Source of the DNA: Candidatus Moraniibacteriota bacterium
GTDB taxonomy: Bacteria; Patescibacteriota; Minisyncoccia; Moranbacterales; UBA1568
Direction: 5' to 3'
Assembly: GCA_013334575.1 (NCBI GenBank)
Contig: JAAXXG010000001.1
Span: forward strand, 41,280-105,279
DNA length: 64,000 nt
The notes beneath the pieces are model-generated. The model was not told where the DNA came from. It worked only from the letters and a program-made list of their open reading frames with translations, and did no database searches. A program made the position numbers and the translations under genes. Below, piece by piece: positions 19,076 to 25,456 of the stretch (positions are counted from its first letter, which is position 1; each line of letters begins with the position of its first letter).

Positions 19076-20107
19076 ATGAAGTTCGGTTTGGAGCGCCGGT
19101 CCAAGAAGTCGGAAGCCGAGGGAGCGCGGAAGACGAAGTTCGAAAAGCCGCTTACCTATCTCCTATCCGGCATGATGCTTGTCGGCGGCGCACACGGTGC
19201 CTCGAAGATGGCGGAAAAACAGGCCGAAGCGCAGCGCGAGAAGCAGCGGAAGGAGCTTGTACAGCGGCACGAGCGCGAGATGCGCGCCCGGGAATCGGAT
19301 CGCGAACGCCTTACTAAGCTTGCCTCCGAAAGGAATCCAATAGCCGAACAGTTTGATTTCGACCGGGCGCATACGGATATCAGGGCAGAGACCGTGCGAG
19401 CCGCCGCTGAACATTGGTATGCGCGGAACATGGAAGGCGATTTTAGGGAAAAATTCTCGGGGGCGGCCGAGAAACTCGAGCGGCATTGGTCGGAGATAGG
19501 GGTGAACTTCGAACGGAACGACGTTCCGACGGAGTTCGCTACGCTTGCCATACAGGAAAGCTATCTGGAAGATACGAAGGATGGGAAGACCTACGGGGCG
19601 TATCAGTTGACGAAGATGAACGTGAATCGGTTTCATGTTCGCGACACGCATAGTCTTCGTGAGACATCGCGCGGTGCCGCCGAACTAATCGCGTCGATCG
19701 GACAGGAGATGCACAATCGTGGCATCGAAGAGCCTGCCTTTGTCACGCTCGCGTATAATGGTACGTTTGCGGTGCCATTTTTACTCAAGTGGAAGAAGAA
19801 TCATCCTGATCATCAGCCGACCATTGATGATTTCTGTCGATACATGAGCGACAGGGTGAATGCTGAGCGTGCACGTATCATCCGAGAGTATGGTCGTGGG
19901 AAAGATGCTCGTGAGCGATTTCACGATGCGGTCTACCCTATGCAGATAAATATCGATTATCTCGCGAAGTTTGAGGGAACGCTCCGGACGATCAAGAAGA
20001 TGCAGGATGACAATCGGATCCATGTCACGATGGTCGGACATTCCGATCCTTCGACGCTGGTCGCACAGGGGTCCGAGAAGTCCAATTCGGATAGGCGGGA
20101 GGGATAA
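19076..20107 (+). CDS. Hypothetical membrane-anchored protein with a possible SLT-like lytic transglycosylase motif
   Basis: N-terminal TM. AIQESYLEDTKDGKTYGAYQLTK resembles the SLT ES...GA.Q region. Charged coiled-coil linker. Confidence 0.3.
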   Translation: MKFGLERRSKKSEAEGARKTKFEKPLTYLLSGMMLVGGAHGASKMAEKQAEAQREKQRKELVQRHEREMRARESDRERLTKLASERNPIAEQFDFDRAHTDIRAETVRAAAEHWYARNMEGDFREKFSGAAEKLERHWSEIGVNFERNDVPTEFATLAIQESYLEDTKDGKTYGAYQLTKMNVNRFHVRDTHSLRETSRGAAELIASIGQEMHNRGIEEPAFVTLAYNGTFAVPFLLKWKKNHPDHQPTIDDFCRYMSDRVNAERARIIREYGRGKDARERFHDAVYPMQINIDYLAKFEGTLRTIKKMQDDNRIHVTMVGHSDPSTLVAQGSEKSNSDRREG

Positions 20108-20180
20108 GGGGAAGAGACACGATCTCAAAACCGAGGATGCGATACGCTTCCCTGATAGCATGGGGAATATTTTCCGGGGA

Positions 20181-20208
20181 TTGACGGAAGTCGATAATAC
20201 GCTATAAT
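20181..20208 (+). promoter_or_regulatory. sigma70-like promoter TTGACG-16-TATAAT
   Basis: ttgacg at 20181-86 and tataat at 20203-08. Confidence 0.55.
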
Positions 20209-20234
20209 GCGATGTTTTCGTTAAAACATCGCAT
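20207..20234 (+). promoter_or_regulatory. Perfect 12-bp inverted repeat (ATGCGATGTTTT-cgtt-AAAACATCGCAT) overlapping the -10 and predicted +1: operator-like
   Basis: Read directly from the sequence. It lies between the TATAAT box and the ATG of 20275. Confidence 0.5.
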
Positions 20235-20274
20235 ATTTCAAAACGGGAGGAAACTCCCACGAACCGTTATCATC

Positions 20275-20838
20275 ATGAAAAAACTCACCCGTTTACTGTT
20301 CCTTTGCGCAGTCGTTTTTGCGCTTATCCACTCGTCGCTTTCGGCGAAGGAGAGGTCATGCCTTTGGAAAGAAGTTTTTGTTCCGCTGGATACGGCATGC
20401 TCAAGAAACGATGATATCTATGTAAAATTATCCGGGAAGTTCAGAGTGCTTGATGTGGATCGGAACGGGGCTAGAATGCTCGCTCATGGAGAAGCCGCAC
20501 CAGACTTCGCAGGGCTTGAAGATGACATTTGTAAAAAAAACCAGCAATCGACCTATCCGGTGATGATCTACTGCCATCCGATGCGCATAATCACGAAAAC
20601 GGAGGAGACAAAAATCATCAGCAATTTCAAGCAGCAATTTCCGGGAAAACAAGGATACCTGATATTCTTTATCGGTCAGGAACAGGGTGGTTGTCTTATG
20701 ACAGCGTCAAGCGATGATGAATTGCGGCTTATGAGTGCCGAACTGGATCGCATCGTTTCACGTGCAGGAGCTACTAGGGATGGTAGCGGACGCTGGAATT
20801 GTATAAGGCCGCACATGTTGCCGAACGCAATCCTCTAA
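20275..20838 (+). CDS. Secreted hypothetical protein (Sec signal peptide), AT-richer composition
   Basis: MKKLTRLLFLCAVVFALIHSSLSA. No recognisable domain. Several Cys residues. Confidence 0.5.
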   Translation: MKKLTRLLFLCAVVFALIHSSLSAKERSCLWKEVFVPLDTACSRNDDIYVKLSGKFRVLDVDRNGARMLAHGEAAPDFAGLEDDICKKNQQSTYPVMIYCHPMRIITKTEETKIISNFKQQFPGKQGYLIFFIGQEQGGCLMTASSDDELRLMSAELDRIVSRAGATRDGSGRWNCIRPHMLPNAIL

Positions 20839-20858
20839 ACATAAGCGGTTGATTATTG

Positions 20859-20892
20859 AAAGCTCCCGGACAGAGATTCGGGAGCTTTTTTC
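20859..20892 (+). terminator. Intrinsic terminator
   Basis: aagctcccg gacagagatt cgggagctt followed by ttttt. Confidence 0.7.
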
Positions 20893-20925
20893 GGCGGCTT
20901 CGTTTCTGTGGGTCGTGCAGGGCTC
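20889..20925. repeat. 37-bp direct repeat, copy A: the last 17 nt of tRNA-Lys (3' T-arm/acceptor) plus 20 nt of 3' flank
   Basis: tttcggcggcttcgtttctgtgggtcgtgcagggctc is identical at 21067..21103. Confidence 0.8.
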
Positions 20926-21066
20926 TCCCTCACCTCTCGTCGCGCCGTCGCGCGACTCGGGCTGGGCACCACCTCGCGGTTTTGTCCTCTGACAAAACCC
21001 GCTCCGGCGTTCTCGCCCTGAGGAAGCGGAATCGTCCGCTTCCTTACGACCCAAACGAAAACCGCC

Positions 21067-21103
21067 TTTCGGCGGCTTCGTTTCTGTGGGTCGTGCAGGG
21101 CTC
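21067..21103. repeat. 37-bp direct repeat, copy B (overlaps the 3' end of the intact tRNA-Lys)
   Basis: Identical to 20889..20925. Confidence 0.8.
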
Positions 21104-21159
21104 GAACCTGCGACCGTTGGCTTAAAAGGCCACTGCTCTACCAGCTGAGCTAACGACCC
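21087..21159 (-). tRNA. tRNA-Lys (anticodon TTT)
   Basis: Reverse complement is GGGTCGTTAGCTCAGCTGGTAGAGCAGTGGCCTTTTAAGCCAACGGTCGCAGGTTCGAGCCCTGCACGACCCA. All four stems pair. Confidence 0.9.
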
Positions 21160-21321
21160 GGAATATGCCGATCCCGATCTTTCATTTTATTTCCGGTGCC
21201 ATTGTCGTCTAGGGCTCGGTCACGGATATCTTTCACGCCGTCGCATGAAAGATTCCTCGACCCCGGCTCGCTGTCCGGTCTGCTGACCAAACGACGCTCC
21301 GCCTTTCGAATCCTGACGGAT

Positions 21322-21379
21322 TCGAACCTGCGACCGTTGGCTTAAAAGGCCACTGCTCTGCCAGCTGAGCCAACGACCC
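21322..21379 (-). pseudogene. Truncated tRNA-Lys: 5' fragment covering positions 1-58, with the 3' T-stem/acceptor replaced
   Basis: 58 nt match the intact gene apart from two D-arm substitutions. The 3' T-stem and acceptor cannot pair (CCGTC / AGGATTC). The fragment is followed by an 8-bp perfect hairpin, tcgaatcc-tgac-ggattcga. Confidence 0.7.
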
Positions 21380-21499
21380 GGAAACATGGCAAGTATATAC
21401 TTGCTCTTACAAGGCGTCAATCAGTCGCTTTTCGGGCATCGGTCCTTCTGATATACTGATTCCGTGCCGGAAACGGCCGAAAATAACCATCGGACCAAT

Positions 21500-22618
21500 A
21501 TGAAACGGGCCGCGTTGTTGGGAATACCTCTGTTGGCATTGATGCTTTCCGGCTGTTCATCGTCTCAGACTCCTTCGGACGGCCAGAAGTCGCTCATTCC
21601 GGAAGGCCTCGTTTCCAAGAATGAGAAGGGAAGTGTCTGGAAGAGCGACGACGGAGGAGAGAGCTTTCATGTGAGTTCGACCGTCGACGCGACGAGGTCG
21701 ATCGACAAGGCGGATATTCTGTCGATCAGTTTTCATCCGACGAAGCCGATGTCGGTCATCCTGGGGACGGTCAACGACGGAGTCTTCAAGACCGAGGATG
21801 GCGGCGATACCTGGATGCCGATAGCCTTTCCCCCGAAACGGATTTACAGTTTCATCATCGACCGCAAGGACCCGGACAACCGCATGTTCGTCTCCGGTGT
21901 CGTGAACGGGCACGGAAAGATTTTCCGGACGGACGATGACGGGACCGCGTGGCACGAGGTGTATTCGGAGCCGGGCGAGAACACGTTCATTTCCTCGCTC
22001 GCGCAGGATCCGTTCGATGCCGCCGTCATCTATGCCGGAACGAGCGCCGGGACGCTGCTGAAGTCCGGGGACGCCGGGGCCACCTGGGGAAACGTAAGCG
22101 TGCCGGATACCGGAACCGGGATCGTGGCCGACATCGTCTTCGATCCGAAGAGGCGCGGATCCGTCTCGTTCCTTTCCTATACGAACAAGATGTTCCATTC
22201 CGACGATGGCGGGGTTACGTGGATAGACTGGGATCAGGTGCGACGGAACGACCGATCGCTCGAGAATCAGCAGGCGCCGAATCAGATGCTTACGCTGGTT
22301 GCCGATCCGTCGGTCTCCGGGACGTTGTATGCCGGGACCGGATCCTCCGGTATGTACCGGACGACGGATAACGGACGTACCTGGACCAAGATAAACATCA
22401 TCGAGAGTGCGGAGAAGTTCCCGATCAAATCGATAGCCGTGGACCCGAAGGATCCGCGTCGGATCGTATTCGTTGCGGGAAAGGCCTTTTACCGCTCGAC
22501 GGACGGCGGATCCACCTGGTCCGTCACGGCGCTCAACTCGGATCGCTCCGCGTCGGTCGCCGCATATGACCCGTTCGACTCCCGGTTCGTGTTCGTAGGC
22601 CTGAGGAGTTCGCAGTAA
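21500..22618 (+). CDS. Lipoprotein with BNR/Asp-box repeat beta-propeller (sialidase/Ycf48-like fold)
   Basis: MKRAALLGIPLLALMLSGC lipobox. Seven S/T-x-D-G-G-x-T-W repeats (SDDGGESF, TEDGGDTW, TDDDGTAW, SGDAGATW, SDDGGVTW, TTDNGRTW, STDGGSTW). Confidence 0.6.
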   Translation: MKRAALLGIPLLALMLSGCSSSQTPSDGQKSLIPEGLVSKNEKGSVWKSDDGGESFHVSSTVDATRSIDKADILSISFHPTKPMSVILGTVNDGVFKTEDGGDTWMPIAFPPKRIYSFIIDRKDPDNRMFVSGVVNGHGKIFRTDDDGTAWHEVYSEPGENTFISSLAQDPFDAAVIYAGTSAGTLLKSGDAGATWGNVSVPDTGTGIVADIVFDPKRRGSVSFLSYTNKMFHSDDGGVTWIDWDQVRRNDRSLENQQAPNQMLTLVADPSVSGTLYAGTGSSGMYRTTDNGRTWTKINIIESAEKFPIKSIAVDPKDPRRIVFVAGKAFYRSTDGGSTWSVTALNSDRSASVAAYDPFDSRFVFVGLRSSQ

Positions 22619-22645
22619 CGTATTAAGCAGGGAAATCGAAGGCAT

Positions 22646-23209
22646 ATGAGCTTGATCAAGGACATACTCGAGGGCGGCGGCGGACGTTTCGGTGCGGCGG
22701 TGGAACATTTTCGGTCGGAAGCGGCGAAGCTTCGTACCGGACGGGCTCACCCGTCGCTGGTGGAAGACCTGCTGGTCGACTATTACGGTACGAAGACTCC
22801 CGTGAAACAGCTTGCGAGCGTTTCGGTTCCGGAATCCCGGACGATCCTGATCCAGCCGTGGGACATCTCCGGACTGCAGGCCGTGGCGGACGCGATACGC
22901 GTATCCGATCTCGGTCTCAATCCGGCGGACGACGGTCGCGTCATCAGGTTGTCGTTGCCGGCTCTCACGGAAGACCGTCGCAAGGAGCTTGTCAGGACGC
23001 TGAACGCCCGAATGGAAGACGCCCGCGTCTCCATCCGCACTACCCGCGAGGAACTGTGGAAGGAGATCCAGCAATACGAGAAGGAAGGTTTGATCGGGGA
23101 AGACGAGAAGTTTTCCGGCAAGGACGAGCTGCAGAAGGAGGTCGACCGCTTCAACGCGGAGCTTGAATCGGTCCGGAGAAAGAAAGAGGAGGAGATCATG
23201 ACGGTCTGA
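22646..23209 (+). CDS. frr: Ribosome recycling factor
   Basis: Full-length RRF (187 aa). Confidence 0.9.
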   Translation: MSLIKDILEGGGGRFGAAVEHFRSEAAKLRTGRAHPSLVEDLLVDYYGTKTPVKQLASVSVPESRTILIQPWDISGLQAVADAIRVSDLGLNPADDGRVIRLSLPALTEDRRKELVRTLNARMEDARVSIRTTREELWKEIQQYEKEGLIGEDEKFSGKDELQKEVDRFNAELESVRRKKEEEIMTV

Positions 23210-23227
23210 TAACGTAACCGCACGACC

Positions 23228-24385
23228 ATGACCATCGGCACGCTCGTTATCTTCATCGTGATGCTCGGCGTACTCGTGCTTGTGCACGAGTACGGGCACT
23301 ACTTCGTCGCCGTTCGGAGCGGCATCAGGGCCGAAGAGTTCGGTTTCGGATTCCCGCCGCGACTCGTCGGCTTTTATCGCAAGCGCGGTTCCGGGAAGTG
23401 GGGCGTGGTCCTGGGGGAGCGGGAGGCGGAAACGGACGGCACGGTATGGTCCCTTAACTGGATACCGTTCGGCGGGTTCGTGCGCATGAAGGGCGAGGAC
23501 GAAAACGCGCGACGCGATCGGGACAGCTTCGCCTCCAAAGGCGTATGGACGCGCGTGGCCGTGCTGTCGGCCGGAGTCGTCATGAATTTCCTGCTTGCGT
23601 GGGCGATCGTTTCCGCGCTCTACGTCGTAGGCGTCCCTCGCACGGTCACCGACGAGACACGGGCGAACGCTTCGGACGTGTCGGTGATGATCATGTCGGT
23701 CGCGAAATCGTCTCCGGCGGAGGAGATGGGCCTGCGCCCCGGAGACCGGATCGTCGCGATAGAAGGAGAGTCCGTTTCGGGACTGACCGAGGCGAAGCAG
23801 GCGATCGATTCCCGGCGCGGGACGGAGACTGTGATCTCGATCGACCGTTCCGGGACGAGGATGGATCTTCACGGGACTCCGCGCTCGGTGACGCCGGAGA
23901 ACGAAGGCGCGCTCGGTATCGCGTTCGCGGAGATGGGTATCGTACGGTATCCGTGGTACGAGGCGCCGTTCCGCGGAGCGGTCGCGACATGGAACGCGTC
24001 GGTATCGGTCGCATCGGCCCTGTTCGAGATCGTCCGCGGAATCGTTCTCGGACGTTCCGGTGCCGGCGATGTCACCGGCCCGATCGGCATCGTCTATGCG
24101 ACACGGGAGGTGGCGGATCTGGGCCCCGCGTATCTGTTGCAGTTCGCCGCCATCCTTTCCATCAACCTTGCTATCTTCAATATCCTGCCGATTCCGGCAC
24201 TCGACGGGGGTCGGATCCTGTTCGTCCTTATCGAGAAGTTCAAGGGGGCGCCGGTCCGGGAAATCGTCGAACAGCGGTTTCACCAGATAGGATTCCTGCT
24301 GCTGTTGCTGCTGATGTTGGCGGTGACCGTCAGGGACGTCGCCCAGTTTCGGATACTCGAGAAGGTCTGGCAGCTGATTACGTAG
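23228..24385 (+). CDS. rseP: RIP metalloprotease RseP (site-2 protease)
   Basis: HEYGHY HExxH motif in TM1, a PDZ domain, and the C-terminal LDGG motif region. Confidence 0.85.
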   Translation: MTIGTLVIFIVMLGVLVLVHEYGHYFVAVRSGIRAEEFGFGFPPRLVGFYRKRGSGKWGVVLGEREAETDGTVWSLNWIPFGGFVRMKGEDENARRDRDSFASKGVWTRVAVLSAGVVMNFLLAWAIVSALYVVGVPRTVTDETRANASDVSVMIMSVAKSSPAEEMGLRPGDRIVAIEGESVSGLTEAKQAIDSRRGTETVISIDRSGTRMDLHGTPRSVTPENEGALGIAFAEMGIVRYPWYEAPFRGAVATWNASVSVASALFEIVRGIVLGRSGAGDVTGPIGIVYATREVADLGPAYLLQFAAILSINLAIFNILPIPALDGGRILFVLIEKFKGAPVREIVEQRFHQIGFLLLLLLMLAVTVRDVAQFRILEKVWQLIT

Positions 24386-24423
24386 TTCGAAAAGCCTTAT
24401 ATAAGGGATTATTTATTCCCATA

Positions 24424-24470
24424 CACCGCAGCGTCAGGCCGTATGCCGACGCTGCGATTCCTTTTGTGGG
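24424..24470 (+). terminator. Hairpin terminator after rseP
   Basis: cgcagcgtc aggccgtatgcc gacgctgcg followed by attccttttgtgg. Confidence 0.45.
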
Positions 24471-24499
24471 AATTACTCTGATTAAAAATCATTCGAATA

Positions 24500-24528
24500 T
24501 TGACAAAATGGCTTAGAAACGCTATTAT
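24500..24528 (+). promoter_or_regulatory. sigma70-like promoter TTGACA-17-TATTAT
   Basis: Read from the sequence. It precedes the gene at 24586. The 5'UTR carries two small hairpins. Confidence 0.5.
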
Positions 24529-24585
24529 ACCAGGTCGGATTTTCTCCGACTGATTCTCTTCGAAACGATTTCGAATCACAAGACT

Positions 24586-25218
24586 ATGGAACATTCGACA
24601 CTGCCCTTTGTTCTGCGCCGATGGCGAAAGGCCACTTTCGTCGGCGTTATGGTCGCCTCGCTGTCGTTCGTAGCCGTCTTCGTTTTCGGACCGGATTATT
24701 CCGTCCGGACGGACTATCTTGTCAGTCAGGATGGTGCCATGACCAAGGACTATTATTCGTTGACCCGTTCGGCGGAGTATATGAGCCGTATCCTTACGGA
24801 GGTGACGGGGAGCGAGCGTTTTATCGACGCGGTCATCGAGACCGGGAAGGTCGGGCAGGATTTTCTTCCTTCCGATAAGCGCGAACGACTCGCTTCGTGG
24901 AGGAGGATGGTCAGGATCGACAAGAAGCTCGACCTCGGCATTATCGGCGTTACGGTATCCGCCGACGACATGAAGTCGGCACAGAAGGTGTCGCTCGCGA
25001 TTTCGCAGGTCTTTACCGAGCGTAACGGCCGGTTTCTCGGCGGCGGGGATGCGAACGTCCCGGTCACGATCCTCTCCGGCCCGATAACGGAACGGAATCC
25101 TTCCGCAATACGGATCGCTATCGCCGTCCTGGGCGGATTCGCCGTAGGCTTTTTCGGATACCTGCTGCGCTCGTTCGTCGCCTCCATGTTCCGCGAGACG
25201 AAGGATCACGTTTCCTGA
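24586..25218 (+). CDS. Hypothetical bitopic membrane protein (TM, ~140-aa extracytoplasmic loop, TM), Wzz/CapA-like topology
   Basis: Annotation is from topology only. TM1 is FVGVMVASLSFVAVFVFG and TM2 is AIAVLGGFAVGFFGYLL. Confidence 0.3.
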   Translation: MEHSTLPFVLRRWRKATFVGVMVASLSFVAVFVFGPDYSVRTDYLVSQDGAMTKDYYSLTRSAEYMSRILTEVTGSERFIDAVIETGKVGQDFLPSDKRERLASWRRMVRIDKKLDLGIIGVTVSADDMKSAQKVSLAISQVFTERNGRFLGGGDANVPVTILSGPITERNPSAIRIAIAVLGGFAVGFFGYLLRSFVASMFRETKDHVS

Positions 25219-25456
25219 TCGATCTTCTCATGCCGGGTCGGAGCGCATTCTACGATCCGGACGAGAGGACCGATACCATGATATCGACGATATCGCGGTA
25301 GGCGATCCTCACGAGTTTGTTTACAATTCCATGACAGTCATGGTTCCGCCCGACCGGTGTCGGGATACGTGCATACCATCGCGCCACCGCGCGTCCATAG
25401 ATCGAACGAGTGTAATGATCCGAAACAAGCAATAAACGAGAAGGAGGGCAGCAGCG

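Follow-up and report, generated by a model that had tools for sequence, protein, structure and literature searches.

Element X, a candidate structured element without a protein gene, at a tandem tRNA-Lys locus of a Candidatus Moraniibacteriota bacterium and beside other tRNA genes

Why does an intact lysine transfer RNA (tRNA-Lys) gene lie among incomplete pieces of itself in a Candidatus Moraniibacteriota genome? The locus is found in a stretch of 64,000 nucleotides (nt) of contig JAAXXG010000001.1 (positions 41,280 to 105,279; assembly GCA_013334575.1), which we refer to as the window and whose own numbering is used throughout. An earlier reading of the sequence by a model (the original prediction) had explained the pieces as the scar of an integrated and excised element. 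In our reading the locus is made up of two successive units, each consisting of a tRNA-Lys copy and a copy of a short folded sequence, element X, and X appears to be an undescribed and widespread tRNA-linked structured element which follows many other tRNA genes as well.

Two units of tRNA-Lys and element X

tRNA genes were called with ARAGORN and Rfam covariance models, and promoter-like sites were scored by their consensus matches out of 12. Relatives and family loci are labelled L002-L142, L142 being the sister-strain metagenome-assembled genome (MAG) GCA_013336155.1. The three tRNA-Lys pieces of the original prediction were recovered where it had placed them by sequence comparison, ARAGORN, Rfam and a repeat search: an intact gene (copy A), which is presumably the functional tRNA-Lys gene, a longer 5' fragment (copy B), and a 3' fragment within a direct repeat (Table 1). 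The repeat is exact (37/37 nt between 20889-20925 and 21067-21103, at a spacing of 178 nt) and, as predicted, comprises tRNA positions 57-73 plus 20 nt of flank, while 21322-21379 on the minus strand corresponds to copy A positions 1-58 with two mismatches (A9G and T20C, i.e. 56/58); both repeats are far above chance expectation. There is also a fourth, degenerate tRNA-Lys 3' piece at 21204-21218 (GTCGTCTAGGGCTCG, repeat family D4), which the original prediction had not noted.

The body between the two 37-nt repeats is 141 nt long and belongs to element X, which adopts a multi-branch fold (RNAfold -85.7 kcal/mol, z -5.9) that is also seen in L004 (z -4.5). A covariance model, R1, which we built from aligned family cores, detects X at 20915-21028 with 98.5 bits, and it also detects a second and more diverged copy, X', which was outside its training set and whose core retains the hairpin TCTTTCATGC-GACG-GCGTGAAAGA. 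R1 aligns GUCAGGAUUCGAA, which directly follows the T loop of copy B, as the left arm of X', and this sequence complements TTCGAATCCTGAC, which in relatives forms the 3' half of the tRNA-Lys T arm. Copy B therefore appears to end at position 62, where it is fused to X', and since GUCAGGAUUCGAA is the X' left arm, the hairpin at 21305-21326 would be the joint between the two. This is the hairpin that had been noticed after the 5' fragment; it does exist, but it has 9 bp rather than 8.

The copy B region is itself called as a tRNA by ARAGORN (21306-21380) and by Rfam (21307-21379; 41.2 bits, gathering threshold 29), a result which the original prediction had named as one that would tell against it if the fragment were complete. 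The call comes with broken pairs (two of five in the T-stem and one of seven in the acceptor, two further pairs being G-U), and its last 11 nt at the 3' end are the ones which R1 aligns as the X' left arm, so that copy B is best read as a pseudo-tRNA. Its T loop is TTCGAAT, as in the relatives, and that of copy A is TTCGAGC; with a T loop like that of the relatives, copy B would be the older resident copy, with its first 58 nt still like copy A.

Judged from the sequence, the locus thus reads as two tandem [tRNA-Lys(UUU) + X] units on the minus strand, at spacings of 220 nt and 178 nt. The downstream unit is intact (copy A, terminator, X, and the repeat of tRNA 57-73 with flank), and the upstream unit is decayed (copy B without everything past position 62, fused to X', with a degenerate 3' end). 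We are confident of this identification of the parts. It replaces the proposal that the 5' and 3' fragments are two halves of one tRNA, as the right arm of X accounts for the 3' piece, and an older copy fused to X' for the 5' piece. We also rejected a split or trans-spliced tRNA, as copy B joined to 21204-21218 would have four broken pairs and an intact gene is present. Units repeated in this way might result from local duplication and decay of tRNA-Lys with its spacer, folds and repeats being incidental, and unequal crossing-over is indeed expected at such repeats; however, the spacer is a conserved, covarying family which elsewhere follows unrelated tRNAs and a tmRNA (transfer-messenger RNA), and this family-level evidence, given below, refutes what we consider the least credible of the alternatives.

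The X family and its fold

A pattern taken from the X core (GCCCAGCCCGA-N14-24-RAGAGGYGAGGG) was run on metagenome contigs and matched at least 120 of them. Among the matches listed, to which the following counts apply, there are at least 127 instances, 86 of which lie less than 300 nt downstream of a tRNA or tmRNA gene that ARAGORN calls on the same strand (median distance from gene 3' end to pattern, 119 nt); 18 of the remainder lie at a contig edge, and some follow intron-bearing tRNAs missed by ARAGORN. The upstream genes represent at least 28 anticodon species and at least 16 amino-acid specificities, plus one tmRNA. An exact copy of at least 10 nt of the 3' end of its own gene follows the core in 80/86 instances (median 16, maximum >43 nt), compared with a control median of 6 nt for the shared exact run. 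This copy starts 0-2 nt after the core and corresponds to a point 13-21 nt before the gene end, immediately past the universal GTTC and within the T loop. To the left of the core is a stretch complementary to the tail copy and then a variable 9-10-bp hairpin, often with a complement of the acceptor 3' strand (absent in L046, L118 and L126). The layout of X is therefore a variable hairpin, a left arm that complements the T-loop/T-stem 3' half of the neighbouring tRNA, a core of ~85 nt with two stem-loops, and a right arm copied from the tRNA, which begins at T-loop position 56/57 and sometimes extends through the terminator.

Tandem X arrays are found in L042, L065, L070, L090 and L126, extra and more diverged copies on the same contig are common, and single genes sometimes sit between arrayed units (L093, L121). 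A Pfam search of 79 open reading frames (ORFs) near X, and of ORFs between tandem copies, found no enriched family and no recombinase. In eight loci (L023, L034, L040, L046, L048, L064, L123 and L124) X lies within a tRNA-Lys(ctt)-X-tRNA-Leu(tag) operon with ~30-nt spacers and no terminator, and there X is likely to be transcribed.

Individual members differ in ways that we note separately. X follows the tmRNA gene in L026 (26-605) and ends in a 17-nt copy of the tmRNA 3' end (GATTCCCGCCATCTCCA). In L025 and L080, which are on one contig (Ga0172379_10004249), the X copies at two tRNAs share a compensated outer-helix variant, GACC/GGTC and not CGCC/GGCG, which hints at spread or homogenisation within a genome. 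X also follows a tRNA-Asp with an anticodon-loop insert of ~290 nt in L096 (5480-5765), missed by ARAGORN, the insert position matching that of the 35/36 group I introns of Patescibacteria (PMC13011429).

For the fold we used an alignment of 74 non-redundant cores, in which RNAalifold found two stem-loops within an outer helix and double compensatory changes in 15/23 pairs. With the helix between the arms added, paired cells make up 90.4%, against 74.8% in shuffles, and the covariation score is 0.456 versus 0.169 (0/500 shuffles reach it); controls with slid partners pair at 35-47%. The arm helix itself is 77% paired with double changes in 7/8 pairs, a column-based count which is clearer than our early heuristic for complementarity between the left and right arms, where the difference was modest (3.9 vs 3.3 of 5 pairs) and register errors occurred. 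G-U and U-G pairs number 55 against 16 A-C and C-A pairs, and in the arm helix 31 G-U pairs have the G in the left arm and the U in the right; this excess indicates that the strand which folds is the tRNA-sense strand, whether as RNA or as single-stranded DNA (ssDNA). Tandem G-A juxtapositions, as inferred from the alignment, are present in both internal loops. These results mark X as a structured element that is selected in single-stranded form, either RNA or ssDNA, with the caveats that the fold was drawn from the very alignment used to test it and that two sequence blocks were fixed by the search pattern.

Such a fold is what might be expected of a host non-coding RNA (ncRNA) gene family residing in tRNA operons, with a closing helix that imitates the T-stem/acceptor minihelix of the neighbouring tRNA. 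X would then be released by tRNA-processing enzymes, and the identity of the arms would be kept by local gene conversion and compensatory change in the left arm, the window X being a functional gene and X' a pseudogene. The strong covariation, the conserved unpaired junction bases, the tandem G-A motifs (which are K-turn-like, i.e. resemble kink-turns), the G-U excess on the tRNA-sense strand and the position of X between co-oriented, terminator-less tRNA genes in eight loci all favour this explanation. On the other hand, an intrinsic terminator often separates the tRNA from X with no evident promoter, the acceptor-complement strand is absent in the three members named above, and the placement of one core at at least 28 anticodon species would still require duplication. 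On balance we think it unlikely that X is simply a host RNA gene, although it is the rival which we take most seriously.

The locus among relatives

The same B-X'-A-terminator-X-repeat module is present in L142, where window positions 20889-25326 align without gaps at 98.9% identity, and since the architecture of the sister strain is the same, the locus is not a recent scar; the original prediction had itself proposed that a related genome with identical architecture would tell against it, and L142 is in part such a genome. The tRNA-X-repeat arrangement is also found in L133, L004 and L008, and the X homologs of these and of L142 score 98-113 bits with R1 (45.9 bits for X' of L142). Copy B of L142 is 100% identical to copy A over positions 1-58, which suggests gene conversion between the two. 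The presence of the module in relatives as well as in two MAGs obtained independently led us to reject an assembly artefact. We note that an independent assembly of the window strain, a Logan contig (SRR11449211; L002 4681-4733), runs from the 187-aa gene into the 37-nt repeat and then into copy A from position 73 to 21, with the X body skipped; either the assembler skipped the loop here or part of the population lacks X.

The direct repeat of L142 is longer, at 51 nt, and consists of tRNA 57-73 with the whole terminator hairpin, duplicated after X. The 37-nt repeat of the window is a truncated form of it: similarity to L142 breaks off exactly at 20889, within the terminator duplicate, and begins again at 20071 with 92.7% identity. 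The segment in between (46-47% GC, the content of guanine plus cytosine, in the window) has no nucleotide similarity to L142 4469-5389, and the difference between its flanks (92.7% on the left, 98.9% on the right) suggests mosaic recombination. Its secreted 187-aa protein is 26% identical (E 2e-10) to a 182-aa protein of L142 in the same position and is otherwise an ORFan in the protein database; by sequence and position we take the two for highly diverged alleles of one gene. The 343-aa gene at 19076 is syntenic in L005, L010, L011 and L142. Neither gene therefore fits the role of remaining cargo that had been suggested for them.

This bears on the larger claim that a tRNA-Lys-carrying integrative element had recombined in the T loop and was then mostly deleted, leaving the fragments as attL and attR and the genes as cargo. 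Islands integrated at tRNA genes classically have att sites of this kind, a direct repeat which starts in the T loop and continues through the tRNA 3' end; in this respect the T-loop-anchored geometry of the original prediction is borne out, although a recent integration and excision scar is not. The strain-variable segment that adjoins the repeat also speaks for such an element, as do cassettes of ~860 bp in L003 (4831-5727) and L011 (4454-5351) with a lone Ser_hydrolase (PF06821) gene, which have the tRNA-Lys 3' end on one side and a variant 3' fragment of 58 nt on the other (attL/attR-like, with no integrase). Against it, a body of ~150 nt that is found at many tRNAs, in at least 120 contigs, is not what a random deletion leaves behind; the unit of ~150-180 nt recurs entire, so that no large deletion need be assumed. 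There is also no integrase among the 79 neighbouring ORFs, the architecture is identical in L142, the 343-aa gene keeps its synteny in relatives, L142 has a positional homolog of the 187-aa gene, and the 5' fragment is a separate and older unit. We consider a mostly deleted island very unlikely and by now largely refuted.

Amongst the other relatives, X is present at tRNA-Lys(ttt) in L133, L004 and L008, as it is in the window and L142, but was not found at this gene in L003, L007 and L011, while L005 and L010 have left-arm or hairpin-like remnants only (judged by eye). By these comparisons the module is old, stable among close strains and lost in some lineages. L133 is 86% identical over copy A and X and keeps the A-terminator-X-repeat order with a repeat of at least 44 nt, copy B being replaced by a different truncated copy that bears a palindrome. 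In L004 and L008 the 3' half of X is ~90% identical, with BNR proteins that are 67% and 48% identical, respectively; hairpins 1 and 2 differ wholly in sequence with pairing fully compensated, and the closing and T-stem-like pairs change along with the tRNA-Lys of each genome. Retention of X at the orthologous tRNA-Lys of the window, L133, L004 and L008, with these compensated hairpins, is again what an RNA gene would lead one to expect. The loss or decay of X in the close relatives L003, L005, L007, L010 and L011 is not, and nor are exact repeats that extend into non-functional flank or whole terminators, such as those of L142 and L133.

The coordinates of the features are given in Table 1. 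The first half of the terminator-like hairpin lies within the 37-nt repeat. There is no terminator between copies B and A, and, with a strong promoter-like site before copy B, B-X' probably precedes tRNA A as a transcribed leader; the TTGAC..TATACT context, ~121 nt upstream of the gene for a BNR-repeat protein, is also found in L003, L011 and L142. This gene (21500-22618) adjoins the locus, its best named matches are in Candidatus Moranbacteria MAGs, and the gene order tRNA-Val, serS, malic enzyme, tRNA-Lys (minus strand), BNR gene, frr is kept in at least 15 Moranbacteria loci.

Table 1. Features of the tRNA-Lys locus in window coordinates
Feature	Position	Strand	Remarks
Promoter-like TTGACG-17-TATACT	21392-21420	minus	10/12 consensus matches; ~12 nt upstream of copy B
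Copy B, tRNA-Lys positions 1-62	21318-21379	minus	T-stem 3' strand and acceptor 3' strand missing
Hairpin of 9 bp, TTCGAATCC-GTCA-GGATTCGAA	21305-21326	minus	Copy B T loop plus CC (TTCGAATCC) pairs with X' left arm (GGATTCGAA)
X', second diverged X copy	21207-21323	minus	R1 48.7 bits, E 2.6e-10, full model length
X' right arm, degenerate tRNA-Lys 3' fragment CGAGCCCTAGACGAC	21204-21218	minus	~positions 56-70; 87% to the copy within tRNA A
Weaker promoter-like TAGACG-16-TAAAAT	21184-21211	minus	9/12, consensus match only; upstream of tRNA A
Copy A, intact tRNA-Lys(UUU) (gene call ttt)	21087-21159	minus	ARAGORN; Rfam tRNA 69.8 bits, every stem paired
Upstream copy of 37-nt direct repeat	21067-21103	minus	Inside and after copy A
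Intrinsic-terminator-like hairpin AAACGAA-GCCGCC-GAAA-GGCGG-TTTTCGTTT	21054-21085	minus	Separates tRNA A from X
Element X, ~146 nt	20909-21053	minus	Fold, model R1 98.5 bits, homologs, covariation
X acceptor-5'-like strand GGGTCGT	21047-21053	minus	
X hairpin 1	21022-21045	minus	
X left arm CAGGGC + GAGAAC	21010-21021	minus	
X conserved core, ~84 nt	20926-21009	minus	Two internal stem-loops
X right arm, tRNA-Lys positions 57-73	20909-20925	minus	
Downstream copy of 37-nt direct repeat	20889-20925	minus	tRNA 57-73 plus 20 nt terminator flank
Strain-variable segment, 817 nt	20072-20888	plus	Last ~36 nt of 343-aa gene, 187-aa gene (20275-20838) and its terminator

Other insertions were seen at the tRNA-Lys genes of the relatives. 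A GIY-YIG ORF (PF01541, E 7e-14) abuts the tRNA-Lys 5' end in L007 (5530-5790), L011 (5530-5790) and L004 (5590-5830, minus strand), where it lies between a truncated tRNA-Lys-like copy and the intact gene, and a remnant of ~20 nt (...AATCTC) is present in L003, L008 and L133; this looks like a cassette of homing endonuclease plus tRNA which replaced the resident gene. We also found variant tRNA-Lys-like copies (L004 5299-5380, L008 5408-5490, L003 4831-4890, L011 5352-5420 and 4454-4520, L133 1985-2040) in which the D-stem 3' and anticodon-stem 5' strands are replaced by a palindrome of 14-16 nt, GATCCGCC-NNCT-GGCGGAC. This palindrome is also seen as hairpin 3 in the X copy downstream of the L026 tmRNA gene.

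Insertion module or RNA gene, and known systems

Most likely, in our view, X is a miniature, non-autonomous and protein-less insertion or integration module which is anchored to the T loop. The X core would join the tRNA gene just 3' of the universal T-loop GTTC, and the tRNA 3' end, often with flank or terminator, would become duplicated so that the tRNA gene stays intact; a crossover with a small circular form or insertion at a staggered cut would give the same product, the enzyme acting in trans. X would then persist, under selection, as a folded single strand (RNA or tRNA-sense ssDNA) in which the second copy of the tRNA 3' half is sequestered by pairing with the left arm. Within a transcript that reads through, this pairing may keep the decoy 3' half from competing with the folding of the real tRNA, and in ssDNA the paired arms may mimic a duplex target, like those of attC and CTX attP. 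This insertion mechanism is a tentative proposal, with the balance somewhat against it in its details; when it is taken together with the identity of the parts, we arrive at a compromise judgement that the account is rather probably correct.

Several points weigh against the insertion reading. Covarying stems with conserved junction bases fit an RNA gene selected by the host at least equally well, and the same may be said of the retention of X at the orthologous tRNA-Lys where neighbouring proteins are 48% identical. The insertion reading gives no account of the match between the left arm and every newly occupied tRNA, and the terminator between the tRNA and X in many loci makes expression uncertain. 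The RNAalifold structure was derived and tested on the same alignment, and GCCCAGCCCGA and RAGAGGYGAGGG are invariant because the search pattern required them. The taxonomic range has been placed for the Moranbacteria loci only; one further X locus has a pilin-like neighbour whose only taxon-named match is a 40%-identical protein of Candidatus Taylorbacteria. Our searches found no enzyme, no excised form, and no pair of empty and filled sites that were otherwise identical. It should be noted that the failure to find a mobility protein near X (79 ORFs) is also a point for the RNA gene.

Searches for a known identity of X were negative. Rfam 15, at gathering and at permissive E-values, returned only tRNA and tmRNA and no family that covers X in the window and 30 loci; the group I intron model (RF00028) matched neither the window region (E<=10) nor any of 10 loci (E<=1). 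At the sensitivities used, IMG/VR viral contigs gave 0 matches to an exact 20-mer or the degenerate pattern, INPHARED phages and PLSDB plasmids gave no blastn match to X, and a full-text literature search found no description of it.

Known classes were also tried and rejected. A kb-sized tRNA integrative element with an integrase does not agree with a body of 141 nt and no recombinase among the 79 ORFs, although the direct repeat that starts in the T loop, as such elements have, is present (37 nt in the window, 51 nt in L142, and in 80/86 instances listed). X is not a miniature inverted-repeat transposable element (MITE) or a classical insertion sequence (IS), as its inverted arms are derived from the target and differ for each tRNA, and the repeat length varies from ~10 to >44 nt. 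A mini-IS of the IS91 family would account for adjacency to GTTC, but the loci have a duplication, and the 79 ORFs neighbouring X included no HUH gene. A group I intron is excluded by the lack of a match and by the complete tRNA upstream of X, and an integron attC by a left junction which ends in GAAC with the full RYYYAAC ... GTTRRRY boxes absent, mostly no ORF, and no integrase. LAGLIDADG (L094, L096) and GIY-YIG (L007, L011, L004) genes were considered as an X endonuclease and set aside as separate insertions adjoining tRNAs.

A bolder proposal, which we hold to be improbable, is that X represents an undescribed and self-contained class of element with a programmable arm that homes to T loops, or the subunit of a ribonucleoprotein (RNP) that acts on tRNA 3' halves. 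A homing X would use its structured core of ~85 nt and an arm complementary to the tRNA 3' half to target essentially any tRNA or tmRNA gene, would duplicate the 3' end of that gene and would encode no protein. By analogy, it could rely on arm-guided targeting with an enzyme in trans (as in OMEGA and bridge-RNA systems) or on recombination of folded ssDNA; in the RNP variant, X could be the RNA subunit of a Patescibacteria ribonucleoprotein.

If the main account of X is true, then the tRNA and tmRNA genes of Patescibacteria are shadowed by a conserved, protein-less structured element, with each copy fitted to its neighbour. RNA-family libraries and the tools which annotate tRNAs and islands do not currently recognise X, which would account for recurrent "tRNA fragments" and pseudo-tRNA calls that are otherwise annotated as scars or extra tRNAs. 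X also breaks short-read assemblies, and the Logan contigs of the window locus stop in or skip the repeats. In a phylum whose protein machinery is very reduced, it would be a tractable case either of a minimal mobile element that targets tRNA genes or of a new RNA linked to tRNAs, and with R1 and the search pattern it is directly testable in complete genomes and metatranscriptomes.

X can be compared with several known systems. Williams is said to have described in 2002 how islands and prophages with tyrosine integrases use tRNA and tmRNA genes, with the T loop as a sublocation. Tools for tmRNA and tRNA islands are cited in PMC13011429. X loci are like these islands in the order of intact tRNA, element and then a repeat of the 3' end which starts in the T loop and may pass the gene end, in forming tandem arrays at one tRNA, and in that tmRNA is also targeted. 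However, X is only 150-180 nt long with no integrase or gene, one core is found at at least 28 anticodon species, and the covariation of the core, the strand-asymmetric G-U pairs and the left arm complementary to the repeat are also unlike islands.

The integron attC and the attP(+) of CTX phage are recombination sites made of a folded single strand. X resembles both in that inverted arms ~90 nt apart fold into a stem imitating a double-stranded target, structure is kept over sequence in the stem, one strand is active and units occur in arrays. It differs from them in that we found no link to IntI or XerCD and no R/L box consensus, the X core sequence is highly conserved, and the target is the T loop.

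IS91 uses GTTC (or CTTG) as its target and cleavage tetranucleotide beside oriIS, without target duplication, and ~170 bp of ends with subterminal palindromes suffice in trans, with single-stranded circular intermediates (PMC13181058). GTTC is also T-loop G53-C56, with the X right arm directly 3' of it, and the X core starts with its complement, GAAC. As X loci carry a duplication and no HUH transposase was seen, we treat this likeness as a lead only.

Group I introns in the tRNA genes of Patescibacteria sit at 35/36, and a T-loop group I intron in tmRNA is also mentioned (PMC13011429). These share with X the phylum, a structured RNA at tRNA genes, and the T loop as a known insertion point in tmRNA; in contrast, X lies downstream of a complete tRNA, its core of ~85 nt is too small, and it has no Rfam group I match even at E<=10.

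Finally, tRNA-like ncRNAs include the tRNA-like domain of tmRNA, the bacterial Y-RNA YrlA, and mascRNA. Many X copies likewise have a closing helix made of T-stem and acceptor strands, which could make them recognisable to tRNA-processing enzymes. Unlike these RNAs, X lacks both T loop and elbow, each arm is a copy of the particular tRNA beside it, and a genome has multiple X copies that match different tRNAs.

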